A stretch of 31,449 bases of DNA, taken from the IMG/VR virus record IMGVR_UViG_2541047798_000008; one strand, written 5' to 3'. Under the pieces are notes generated by a model. That model saw nothing but the letters and a program-made list of their open reading frames with translations, made no database searches and had not been told where the DNA came from. This DNA is from a virus. Its lineage: Duplodnaviria; Heunggongvirae; Uroviricota; Caudoviricetes. Below, one piece after another: positions 21,390 through 24,651 of the stretch (the first letter of the stretch is position 1; each line of letters starts with the position of its first letter). The position numbers and the translations under genes were made by a program.

Positions 21390-22052
21390 TCAAATAAAAC
21401 CAGCTGCCTTCCGGCGTTCGTATTCCTGTTTCAGCCGTTCAATTGGCGTTGGCCCTTGCGGGTGTTTCGCCCCTTCCAGTTGTCGTCGCACTGGCGGAAC
21501 ACTCATCCCGTTACCAACATGCTTTGCCCATTTCGTCAGTTGCCGTTCCGCAAGTCGTTTTAACTCACCCTGCGTCATCTGGCGCTCAATCCCTCTGGTA
21601 CGCATTTCGAGGCAGATGTGGTACAGCACAGGCTGTGGCCACGGGTATTTATCACTCCCGTCGTATCGCCAGGATTCATTGCGCCAGCGCCGGTACTCTT
21701 CCATCACTGCATCCACCGTAAGACCAAATGGATTTGCCCCACTCTCCGAAATCAGTGCAACAAACTCAGCCAGGTCCGGGGGCCACGTTTCACCCGCCCG
21801 GCAGCGGTCCATGCACTGACGGCAGACCAGCCGGATTTGCTGTTCAGTCATCGCGCCAATCTGGGCAATCCAGAGCTTCGAAGGTGCGGCCCCGTTCTTC
21901 TGTGTCCAGCGGTTCGAATACGCCTCCCCCATAAGCTCCCACAGCTTCCAGGCCGTTTCCGTTGCTGATAAATCCGTTGTCACGTTCCCACTGTTCGCGT
22001 GCTGCCCGGATTTCCTGAACTGCCCGTGATGCCGTGCCACCTGATGCTGCAT
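21390..22052 (-). CDS. P: Replication protein P-like (helicase loader), 220 aa; start uncertain
   Basis: C-terminal region resembles lambda P as recalled (YPW...LTD/GELKR..AE...). ATG 22050-22052 has AAGGGGG upstream but overlaps the O-like gene by 208 nt; alternative starts at 21932 and 21851. Confidence 0.55.
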   Translation of the reverse strand: MQHQVARHHGQFRKSGQHANSGNVTTDLSATETAWKLWELMGEAYSNRWTQKNGAAPSKLWIAQIGAMTEQQIRLVCRQCMDRCRAGETWPPDLAEFVALISESGANPFGLTVDAVMEEYRRWRNESWRYDGSDKYPWPQPVLYHICLEMRTRGIERQMTQGELKRLAERQLTKWAKHVGNGMSVPPVRRQLEGAKHPQGPTPIERLKQEYERRKAAGFI

Positions 22053-22881
22053 GGCTTACCCCCTTGCTGACTGGTTTTACCTGTGCCCTGACGTGCTGCA
22101 CGTGGCGGGCAAATTTCTGCTCCCACTGAACCTGCGTGAAAACCTTCCCCTCCGCCATCCAGTAATCCCGGAATGCGGCAAGCTCTGCAGGTGTAAATTC
22201 CGGCTCAGGCAGAGCCATACCCCACACTGCTGCCCGTTGTCGAAAATCCGACGACGGCTGCCAGACAGTAGTCATCGAAAATTTCCCGATCGGTTCGCTC
22301 AGGCCGTCCAGGTATTCAGGTTCGGCTGTCTGCAACGGCGCACCATGCGACTCACCGGTTGGAGCACTCTCGCGCATACGCGCGTTATGTGTGGGGTTTA
22401 ATTCTGTATCTGTATCTTTATCTGTCGTGACTTGTCGTGACAGATGCGTGACACGTCGTGACTCATCGTGACAATCAGCATCATATTTCCGCAGCTTTTC
22501 GCGCTCCCGCTGCGCTCTCTTGCGCTCTGCCGGGGATTTTGCCGTTTGCGAAACGTTACCATTGTCCTCTTTCAGCACCTGACGTTTTTCCCATCCGGAA
22601 ATAAGGTCACCATCCAGAACCCGCCCCTGCATTGCATGCAAAATTGAATCAATTACGTCTTCCGTCACATCAAGCGCACTTGCTAAATCTTCCGTCGTGA
22701 CATCAATGTGACCACGTAGTGACACGCCGTGACATGTCGTGACATTTCGTGACGCGCTCACCAGAAGGTGGATATACACTGCCATCACTGTTGCGATTGG
22801 CTGTCCTGATACCCTGGCAATTGTTCGCCACTTAGGGTCATTTGGCATGTCATGCCATAATCTGAGCCAGGCGTTAGCCAT
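21844..22881 (-). CDS. O: Replication initiator / replisome organiser (lambda O-like), 345 aa, with internal iterons
   Basis: N-terminus MANAWLRLWHDMPNDPKWRTIA is typical of phage replisome-organiser N-domains. ATG 22879-22881 with AGAGGTGA upstream. Two GTGAC-repeat arrays lie inside the gene. Confidence 0.7.
   Translation of the reverse strand: MANAWLRLWHDMPNDPKWRTIARVSGQPIATVMAVYIHLLVSASRNVTTCHGVSLRGHIDVTTEDLASALDVTEDVIDSILHAMQGRVLDGDLISGWEKRQVLKEDNGNVSQTAKSPAERKRAQREREKLRKYDADCHDESRRVTHLSRQVTTDKDTDTELNPTHNARMRESAPTGESHGAPLQTAEPEYLDGLSEPIGKFSMTTVWQPSSDFRQRAAVWGMALPEPEFTPAELAAFRDYWMAEGKVFTQVQWEQKFARHVQHVRAQVKPVSKGVSHAASGGTASRAVQEIRAAREQWERDNGFISNGNGLEAVGAYGGGVFEPLDTEERGRTFEALDCPDWRDD
22424..22474. 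repeat. ori: Iteron array 1 (5 copies of CGTGAC at 10-11 bp spacing) with an adjacent AT-rich tract; candidate origin
   Basis: CGTGAC at 22426, 22436, 22447, 22457, 22467; AT-rich ggtttaattctgtatctgtatctttatc immediately beside it. Confidence 0.65.
22694..22755. repeat. Iteron array 2 (6 copies of GTGAC at 10-11 bp spacing) in the 5' part of the O-like gene
   Basis: GTGAC at 22697, 22708, 22719, 22729, 22739, 22749. Confidence 0.6.
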
Positions 22882-22952
22882 ACTCACCTCTTCTGATACC
22901 GAATCTTTTTACTCACGAGTTGCCGGAAGCGATTCGATATGGCTATTGTCAG

Positions 22953-23378
22953 TCAATGTACTGCCACAGCATTTCCTGCCGGGCCACCACGGTTCATCTG
23001 ATTGAAACCGGCGATTGCCACTGCGACAAAATCATCAGCGTCTCTCACCAGTCGCTCCCGCGTCTCCACCAGCTCCCGAAAATAAGCGGAACTGTGGCTG
23101 CGCATTCTGGCCACCAGCAAAGGTGGCATTGCCTTTTCGATCGCTGGTAACAACGCCTGAATTTTTTCAACTGCATCAGGGGTGTCTTTCTCTACCCAGC
23201 GGAAAATTTTCTGGGTATTGCGAGCCAGGGCTTCCGGATGGCTGTCGTCATACAGTTCCGGGAACGTCATTCCCAGCTCGAAATAAGTCCGGGCTATTTC
23301 AGCTGCTGGAACTTTCTCACCGTCTGGATACGCCCAGGCATTCATTGCCATGCGGATGTGTTCATGCTTGATTTTCAT
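22953..23378 (-). CDS. YdaT-like protein (141 aa), CII-position gene
   Basis: Follows the Cro-like gene with a 17-nt overlap; size and position as ydaT in Rac. Confidence 0.5.
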   Translation of the reverse strand: MKIKHEHIRMAMNAWAYPDGEKVPAAEIARTYFELGMTFPELYDDSHPEALARNTQKIFRWVEKDTPDAVEKIQALLPAIEKAMPPLLVARMRSHSSAYFRELVETRERLVRDADDFVAVAIAGFNQMNRGGPAGNAVAVH

Positions 23379-24172: not shown

Positions 24173-24364
24173 ATGAGTACAGCCCTTTCTCCGATAGTTT
24201 CAGAATTCGAAACTACCGAACAAGAAAACAGTTACAACGAATGGTTACGCGCTAAAGTGGCGTCAAGCCTTGCAGACCCTCGTCCCTCAATTCCACATGA
24301 TGAGGTAATGGCTGAAATGGAGAATCTTATTGCTCAAATTGCTGTAACTAACAGGAGCGAGTAA
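24173..24364 (+). CDS. Antitoxin of a ParE-type TA pair (PaaA-like), 63 aa
   Basis: ATG 24173 with GAGGAG upstream; stop overlaps the toxin start (TAATG). Size and context fit PaaA-type antitoxins. Confidence 0.65.
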   Translation: MSTALSPIVSEFETTEQENSYNEWLRAKVASSLADPRPSIPHDEVMAEMENLIAQIAVTNRSE

Positions 24365-24651
24365 TGTTACCCATTTTGTGGCTACCATCTGCTCGCGATG
24401 ATTTGCGTCAGATCGTAGCCTATATTGCTAAGGAAAATATTCCTGCAGCACGCAGACTAAAAATACGGATTGAAACGTCTGTTTTAGCCCTCTCTGAGCA
24501 TCCATATCTATATCCGCCAAGTGATCGAGTATCCGGTTTGCGGGAAATTGTGGTTCACCCTAATTATATCGTTTTGTACCGAGTAGCAACTTCAAGCATT
24601 GAAATTGCAAATATTGTGCATGCCCGCCGACAATTTCCCTTCCCTATCTGA
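24364..24651 (+). CDS. parE: ParE/RelE-family toxin (95 aa)
   Basis: LWLPSARDDLRQIVAYIAKENIPAARRL...GLREIVVHPNYIVLYRV...IEIANIVHARRQFP are typical ParE motifs. Confidence 0.8.
   Translation: MLPILWLPSARDDLRQIVAYIAKENIPAARRLKIRIETSVLALSEHPYLYPPSDRVSGLREIVVHPNYIVLYRVATSSIEIANIVHARRQFPFPI

Follow-up and report, generated by a model that had tools for sequence, protein, structure and literature searches.

Two iteron arrays within the initiator gene of a lambdoid prophage: a probable origin core in the linker and a candidate accessory array in the DNA-binding domain

Replication origins that lie inside the gene of their own initiator are known from bacteriophages lambda and SPP1. Accessory iteron clusters are known from the plasmids RK2, P1 and F, where the iterons of RK2 oriV are grouped as 5+3+1 and those of P1 and F form the incC/incA and incB/incC clusters, respectively, and bipartite origins are found in phage P4, in B. 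subtilis and in H. pylori, the P4 origin being composed of ori and crr. H. pylori oriC is treated in PMC3479198. We analysed a stretch of Caudoviricetes DNA of 31,449 nucleotides (nt) (IMG/VR record IMGVR_UViG_2541047798_000008; hereafter the window), in which the replication initiator gene of a prophage carries two separate iteron arrays. With respect to the systems above, three features appear to be new: a second iteron array within the codons for the DNA-binding domain of the initiator itself, the conservation of this second array across two proteobacterial classes, and its concerted switching with the origin array. We found no description of the initiator family or of the double array in the literature; older phage papers in subscription journals were thinly covered, so that an earlier description is possible.

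A sequence-only reading of the window had reported five CGTGAC and six GTGAC repeats in an O-like gene, phased at 10-11 bp, with an AT-rich tract flanking the former, and we found each of these elements in place. We refer to the five-copy array (array 1 of that reading) as array B and to the six-copy array (its array 2) as array A. On the + strand, the CGTGAC copies of array B start at 22426, 22436, 22447, 22457 and 22467 (GTGAC cores at 22427/37/48/58/68), in steps of 10, 11, 10 and 10 bp, and the GTGAC copies of array A start at 22697/708/719/729/739/749, in steps of 11, 11, 10, 10 and 10 bp; the full CGTGAC is present in array A at 22696, 22728, 22738 and 22748. The tract beside array B comprises 3.8 copies of TCTGTA (22403-22425), with a G+C content (GC) of 0.33 over 22390-22429. 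On the coding (minus) strand the core reads GTCAC, and the next base is G in 9 of the 11 copies. All copies within each array are direct repeats, five and six of them in helical register, as in an iteron-type origin, and Tandem Repeats Finder assigns a period of 10 to both arrays, which are separated by 229 nt in this prophage. Of the 35 GTGAC words on the + strand of the window, 11 are concentrated within 330 bp. The longest GTGAC chain at 10/11-bp spacing has six members, while 600 scans of dinucleotide-shuffled strands gave a maximum of two, or three if any 5-mer was allowed, which rules out a chance origin of the arrays. No further array, such as an oriR-like site, was found elsewhere in the window, where the remaining CGTGAC are all singletons. 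An inverted single core (Table 1) occupies the same position in phage Evi and in Pseudomonas and Aeromonas phages, and its Val codon is GTG in 21 of 21 relatives.

The repeats are maintained as DNA and do not reflect a repeated peptide, a reading that the codon phases and the third positions exclude. Because the period is 10-11 nt, the cores fall in all three codon phases (2,0,1,2,1,0 in array A and 1,2,0,2,0 in array B), and the one DNA word is translated variously as V-T, x-H-x or S-R. We assessed synonymous variation in 24 non-redundant diverged GTCAC-class genes, at four-fold-degenerate codons with a conserved amino acid. The third-position entropy is 0.11 bit in the 7 columns that lie in cores of the two arrays and 1.53 bit in a further 40 columns (Mann-Whitney p=5.6e-5), and the few frozen columns outside the cores correspond to the G that follows the core and to the GTG of the inverted copy. 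In array A, the core synonymous sites are GTC in 24/24, GGT in 24/24 and TCA in 23/24 genes, while other four-fold sites are near saturation. Both arrays share a single 6-bp logo, GTCAC followed by G in 86-87% of the sites, and the spacers carry about 0.2 bit. Thus, frozen synonymous sites together with one logo and uninformative spacers indicate that both arrays are under purifying selection as DNA. Coding constraint alone is rejected by the synonymous-site test, and gene conversion between the arrays by the spacers, which are not homogenised. Moreover, the peptide encoded by array A tracks the DNA core class (SRNVTRGH..VT versus SNATERGRTQ); hence, the DNA signal dictates the protein sequence here. 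The loop length and an '(E/T)RG' motif of this peptide are conserved even in relatives without repeats.

We then compared the arrays among relatives, namely 52 loci from a one-genome-per-species scan, distributed in gamma- and beta-proteobacteria, plus 80 close viral contigs. Conservation concerns both arrays and not one of them: the pair occurs in 44 of 55 relatives (among them Escherichia, Pseudomonas, Aeromonas, Bordetella and Chromobacterium), the cores of the two switch together, and about 25 genera carry both arrays with the GTCAC core. Array B is found in 46 of the 55, with 3-6 copies. In all 80 close E. coli viral contigs, array A has six copies and array B four to six; in the Pseudomonas and Aeromonas phages, at only ∼67% nucleotide identity, the two arrays are located as in this prophage, A with four copies (spaced by 10, 10 and 11) and B with three to five. 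In distant relatives, the core is GTAACG or CGAACG(C), again matching in both arrays. We classified region A and region B independently, searching for the three cores GTCAC, GTAAC and CGAAC, and obtained full concordance (44/44): both regions are GTCAC in 28 loci, GTAAC in 5 and CGAAC in 11, and no locus is discordant. Two loci (L045 and L050) carry array B only, none carries array A only, and nine carry neither array, although the latter may have sites outside the three-core classifier. On a rough neighbour-joining tree of 105 columns, from which the residues encoded by array A were left out, GTAAC appears on at least three occasions: L024/L027 (GTAAC) stand beside L026 (GTCAC) at 75-78% identity, L040 (GTAAC) beside L017 (GTCAC) at 77% identity, and L035/L036 (GTAAC) inside the CGAAC clade. 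Nearest-neighbour identities agree despite the roughness of the tree, lending support to several independent concerted switches of the core. In L027, whose iterons are GTAAC, the inverted copy is also switched and reads GTTAC. With three core classes, concordant arrays and co-inheritance with the N-domain of the initiator, the sites co-evolve with the initiator.

The arrays share their inheritance with nothing but the N-terminal part of the initiator, and the core class differs within a host genus (in Pseudomonas, L012 and L029 are GTCAC and L037 is CGAAC). The simplest reader of the repeats is therefore the initiator N-part, which we infer to bind them, and the variation within host genera makes a host factor an unlikely reader. 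Taken together, these comparisons make it very probable that both arrays are functional protein-binding sites. The initiator is composed of a predicted winged-helix N-domain without a Pfam family, a basic helix, a linker and a DnaT-like C-domain. Pfam detects in the whole protein the DnaT DNA-binding domain only (amino acids (aa) 203-269); for the N-terminal 134 aa there is no family match even with the threshold at E<=10, and a search by sequence returned no solved homologue of the N-domain. The PHROG label is replication initiation protein, with a weak DnaD-like match, the sequence database name is 'phage replisome organizer', and the predicted fold of the N-domain resembles the DnaD N-domain (structure model of moderate confidence, with a predicted local distance difference test score (pLDDT) of 67). 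The designation 'O-like' is hence apt for the position and architecture of the gene but not for homology: the protein has no lambda O domain, its N-part falls in no Pfam family, and membership of the N-domain in the lambda O family (Phage_rep_O) is rejected, since Pfam finds DnaT only.

Array A encodes the end of a helix and the loop between helices of the winged-helix domain, and aa 50-57 in this loop form the sole low-confidence stretch of the domain model (pLDDT<50). The loop itself is unlikely to touch DNA, a situation in which a change of the site would also change its reader, because it tolerates insertions of 7-22 aa. We speculate that the specificity element could be the basic segment located between the wing and array B. 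The type of this segment tends to differ between iteron classes, although not strictly, which hints that it may set iteron specificity, with L026 as an exception. In GTCAC genes, the basic segment has an extra ∼9 aa (GNPETGAKS) and the motif RKRxQRER; AACGC-type genes have RAKxWRE or RVxxYRE. L040 has a winged helix like that of the GTCAC clade, yet an AACGC-type basic segment and GTAACGC iterons. A single residue of the basic region (Q/Y/W) as the specificity determinant is inconsistent with L026, which has Y with GTCAC.

Array B is probably the core of the origin and array A an accessory element, because a conserved A/T dip follows B, because lineages with B only exist and lineages with A only do not, and because the layout in the linker is that of lambda and of SPP1 oriL. 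Array B and the A/T tract occupy gene nt 416-490, flanked by the sequences for the basic region and the DnaT domain, and the GC after array B falls by 0.27 relative to the gene mean, a drop conserved in 24 relatives whose gene GC ranges by host from 39 to 64%. After array A the drop is of only 0.09 in the same number of relatives; a dip befitting an unwinding element thus follows B and not A, and the A/T tract beside B is presumed to be the DNA-unwinding element. Array A has the characteristics of an accessory cluster, as a second group of sites with the logo of B that lies outside the presumed minimal origin and is absent in two lineages. Most loci have 229 or 227 nt between the final core of A and the initial core of B, within an overall range of 195 to 319 nt, and no preferred helical phase between the arrays was found (resultant of 0.24 on distinct distances). 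Array A has expanded independently in several lineages, inserting 7-22 aa: the E. coli clade has gained 7 aa, the L024/L026/L027 clade about as many, L035 13 aa and L030, with inverted copies, ∼22 aa. Relative to phage Evi, the prophage of the window has two extra array-A cores (21 bp), which encode 7 aa (TCHGVSL). The sequence-only reading had proposed a bipartite origin, an autoregulatory site or an exclusion site; the comparisons favour array B as the core and array A as accessory, and make no further choice among these options.

We propose the following mechanism. The N-part of the initiator, with its DnaD-like winged helix and basic helix, would bind the iterons of both arrays and coat a single DNA face, with a 6-bp GTCACG core in each helical turn. 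Binding at B would melt the adjacent A/T tract, upon which the DnaT-like C-domain and the P-like protein encoded by the next gene would recruit the host helicase. Array A, 195-319 bp upstream, in the codons of a tolerant loop of the initiator's DNA-binding domain and with no unwinding element of its own, would gather and oligomerise the initiator near the origin and raise its local occupancy; it would also bridge to B through the self-associating DnaD-like N-domain, so that the two arrays would form a two-part origin or an origin with an enhancer. Given that both arrays bind and that B is the core, the chances that A acts positively seem to us close to even, if slightly below. The positive sign is suggested by the repeated expansions of A, by the fold type, and by the precedent of the Stx (Shiga toxin) phages, in which extra iterons are needed for efficient replication (PMC7466680). 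The complete proposal, with the positive sign of A included, is put forward tentatively, at somewhat less than even chances. A stronger version, in which a two-part phage origin would require A as one of its halves, and the N-part, the iterons and A form one cassette of <500 bp that recombination cannot separate, is doubtful.

Several points weigh against the proposal. L045 and L050 manage without array A, which is hence not universally essential, and the variable A-to-B distance without helical phase speaks against a rigid loop. The accessory clusters of iteron plasmids (RK2, P1 incA, F incC) are usually inhibitory. The class concordance is partly inherited phylogenetically, and the tree behind the count of switches is rough, with 105 columns; the structure model is only of moderate confidence; and no classic, well-studied phage carries the N-domain.

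The main rival explanation, although rather unlikely, concerns the sign of array A. A could be a negative-control or autoregulatory site, acting either as a transcriptional roadblock in the 5' part of the gene or by titration or handcuffing of the initiator away from B. A does share the cores of B without having an unwinding element, upstream of the origin and within a transcribed gene; the accessory clusters of RK2, P1 (incA) and F (incC) lower copy number; and the absence of strict helical phasing suits a site working on its own. A temperate prophage would gain by suppressing replication in situ, whereas lytic growth favours fast replication. The repeated independent expansion of A and the six copies fixed in the E. 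coli clade are easier to explain if more binding is beneficial, and the extra iterons of Stx phages are stimulatory. A roadblock or autoregulatory role also finds no promoter-like site overlapping array A; the search for an internal promoter at the arrays gave a single weak consensus match across array B, no more than shuffled sequences give.

That a protein other than the initiator reads the repeats, either a host factor or a phage regulator such as the cII-like YdaT, is improbable. The idea draws on lambda cII, whose sites (TTGC-N6-TTGC) have a 10-bp period and lie within genes, and on the YdaT/cII-like gene located just upstream of the initiator gene. Yet, among 27 GTCAC-class loci, a YdaT (cII)-like gene is nearby in 3, a cro-like gene in 3, a P-like gene in 4 and a DnaT-like C-terminus in 4; a cII-like or cro-like regulator is rejected as the reader since its gene is absent from most array-bearing loci, and a host factor since the core class varies within host genera. 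In addition, four to six copies beside an A/T tract are origin-like rather than promoter-like, and a promoter signal was not found. Very improbable is a pair of independent origins, a small-scale duplication of the oriL/oriR type: SPP1 G38P does have two separate binding regions, of which one lies in the G38P gene itself (PMC5737612), and the core count of array A equals or exceeds that of B, but no A/T unwinding tract comparable to that of B follows A in the 24 relatives, no lineage has A without B, and A lies in the coding region of a structured domain that leaves no room for an A/T tract. The least probable alternative is that A has no function of its own and is a by-product of coding constraint or a copy of B kept alike by gene conversion, for although the loop length and '(E/T)RG' motif persist without repeats and two lineages lack A, the synonymous positions of its cores are invariant amid near-saturated four-fold sites, the A and B spacers are not homogenised, and the loop peptide changes with the DNA core class, the DNA driving the peptide.

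Table 1. Coordinates of the initiator gene, its repeat arrays and associated features. Positions refer to the window unless a locus is named.
Feature	Position	Strand	Basis and remarks
Replication initiator ('replisome organizer') gene	21844..22881	-	ORF (open reading frame), Pfam, PHROG, RefSeq identical copy
Array A	22697..22753	-	Six GTCAC(G) cores at 10,10,10,11,11 nt; gene nt 135-191; codes aa ∼45-64
Inverted single core	22664..22668	+	33 nt downstream of array A in gene direction; codes V-T of 'DVT'
Basic segment	22483..22590	-	aa ∼100-135, ...AERKRAQREREKLRK..., between wing and array B; predicted long helix 119-147
Array B	22427..22472	-	Five GTCACG cores at 10,10,11,10 nt; gene nt 416-461; inter-domain linker
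A/T tract	22398..22426	-	A-rich, purine-skewed, directly downstream of array B; GATAAAGATACAGATACAGAATTAAA, codes DKDTDTELN
GATAAAGATACAGATAC tract sites	22398-22426; L004 2500-2530; L001 2960-2990		
G+C palindrome CGCGCATACGCGCG	22371..22384		Just beyond the A/T tract; also in Rac-SA53 ydaU
Lambda P-like helicase-loader gene	21390..21851	-	Pfam Phage_lambda_P; RefSeq 'replication protein P'; overlaps initiator stop by 8 nt
YdaT/cII-like gene	22953-23378		Just upstream of initiator gene

The initiator gene is a mosaic (Table 1). Over its nt 1-485, the stretch with the N-domain, both arrays and the A/T tract, it shares ∼85% identity with coliphages Evi, Tritos and others, and its nt 464-1044 are ∼87% identical to the ydaU gene of Rac-SA53, which encodes a different N-domain and has no GTCAC array. 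The N-domain and both arrays hence move as one module, with the joint in the A/T tract. Since the common tract GATAAAGATACAGATAC, which encodes DKDTD, sits exactly where homology turns from Evi-like to Rac-SA53 ydaU-like, it looks like a recombination joint, at which 'N-domain plus iterons' and 'C-domain plus loader' modules would be swapped against each other. The tract is common to initiators with unrelated N-domains, namely those of this gene, of Evi and of Rac-SA53 ydaU. The G+C palindrome that lies just beyond it recalls the one that, in lambda, stands on the right of the A/T-rich region. In Rac-SA53 ydaU, a pair of 12-mers, GGTGTTCAAACA and GGTGTTTGAACA, lies 23 nt apart just upstream of the A/T tract (L004 2439-2473) and may represent the sites of the different initiator type of ydaU.

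Unusual variants of the arrays are found in a few relatives. In L026 (Erwinia phyllosphaerae), both arrays hold one overlapping run, GTCACGTCACGTCACG, with a 5-nt spacing, perhaps a rearrangement that is specific to this lineage and is mirrored in the two arrays. In L030 (Pseudomonas sp. JAI111), array A is a mixed block at gene nt ∼135-215, in which three or four direct GTCACG precede three inverted CGTGAC, spaced by 9 nt, and a further direct copy. In L046 and L054 (Serratia and Pantoea), array B is replaced by an insert of at least ∼90 aa in the linker (YYVYFV...VGISSNPWARVNDLK...GWY), which we take, by eye, to resemble a GIY-YIG / T5orf172-type domain and around which different repeats (CTACG/CGTAG) are found.

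The genes around the initiator form a lambdoid early-right operon, with a cro-like YdaS gene, the cII-like YdaT gene, the initiator gene and the lambda P-like gene, and with a cI-like repressor gene on the opposite strand. The mechanical ORF of the initiator starts at a GTG at 22887 (21844-22887), versus an ATG at 22881 in RefSeq (MANAWLRLW...). Strain AR_0017 carries a copy with 100% identity. For the P-like gene, RefSeq has its start at 21851, whereas the mechanical ORF (21390-22052, minus strand) reaches back another 201 nt into the initiator gene; as Pfam matches the long form from aa 56 onwards only, the short form, with its 8-nt overlap, is likelier. A RelB/RelE-type toxin-antitoxin pair (24173-24651, + strand) adjoins the cI-like repressor gene in the immunity region, and dicB lies slightly beyond this pair, which indicates a Rac/Qin-like prophage backbone. 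Of 5426 complete E. coli genomes, 658 contain >=80% of the initiator gene and 2556 contain parts of it, with up to six matching places per genome. Many of its entries in the protein database (hits P0001-P0034) are labelled 'partial' and come from very short contigs, and some stand for hundreds to >1000 sequences. Short-read assemblies seem to break at this gene, probably because co-resident prophages share halves of it.

The replication module described here is common, and its N-domain family occurs in prophages of gamma- and beta-proteobacteria, without a Pfam family or a solved structure. The comparative data provide a ready-made specificity code, in which three 6-bp cores are paired with matched initiators, and constitute a natural test bed for the way in which an initiator and all its sites change specificity together. 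The locus is also a clean example of a protein-coding sequence shaped by a DNA-binding signal. Finally, it bears on the induction and replication of prophages, including the Stx- and Rac-type mosaics with a common C-terminal module, on replicative incompatibility or exclusion between co-resident prophages, and on the construction of phage-derived replicons.

Among the systems compared, lambda is the closest in layout. As in lambda, where ori lies within gene O (PMC7466680), the linker-coding middle of the initiator gene houses the probable origin, and a P-type loader gene adjoins; transcription passes from the iterons into an A/T-rich strand-asymmetric tract; and the N-part and the iterons form the specificity module, whereas the C-part matches the helicase loader. 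The extra iterons of the six-iteron lambda-type ori of Stx phages add 13 aa to the protein (PMC7466680), as compared with 7 aa here. In contrast, lambda O has no sequence relationship to the initiator of the window, the lambda iterons are 19-bp dyad-symmetric sites bound by O dimers, while the cores here are 6-bp asymmetric direct repeats, and lambda has no counterpart to the second array located ∼230 bp upstream, in the region coding for the DNA-binding domain.

SPP1 G38P is likewise a 'replisome organizer' with a DnaD-like fold, a resemblance that for the initiator of the window is one of name and, tentatively, of predicted fold. As for oriL in gene 38 of SPP1 (PMC5737612), the origin lies in the initiator's own gene, with repeated boxes beside an A/T-rich unwinding element. 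G38P binds two discrete regions (PMC5737612); here, there are two arrays, to which binding of the initiator is suggested by co-variation and co-inheritance. However, the second site of SPP1, oriR, is non-coding and tens of kilobases away, whereas both arrays here lie within 330 bp of one gene. No sequence similarity was established between the two systems, the N-domain here having no Pfam match, and, unlike in G38P, the C-domain is DnaT-like and the partner P-like.

The plasmid accessory clusters share with this locus a minimal origin, made of iterons and an A/T region, plus a further cluster hundreds of bp away, near or flanking the initiator gene. These accessory iterons are non-coding, 17-22 bp long and negative in their effect, by handcuffing and titration, whereas the cluster described here is inside a coding sequence and in a phage. 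In the bipartite origins of P4, B. subtilis and H. pylori, two clusters of the same initiator sites, only one of them beside the unwinding element, cooperate through bridging by the initiator, a cooperation that we only propose for arrays A and B. The clusters of those origins are non-coding and are bound by DnaA or the P4 alpha protein, while those of the prophage initiator gene are coding, and their variable spacing speaks against a fixed loop geometry.

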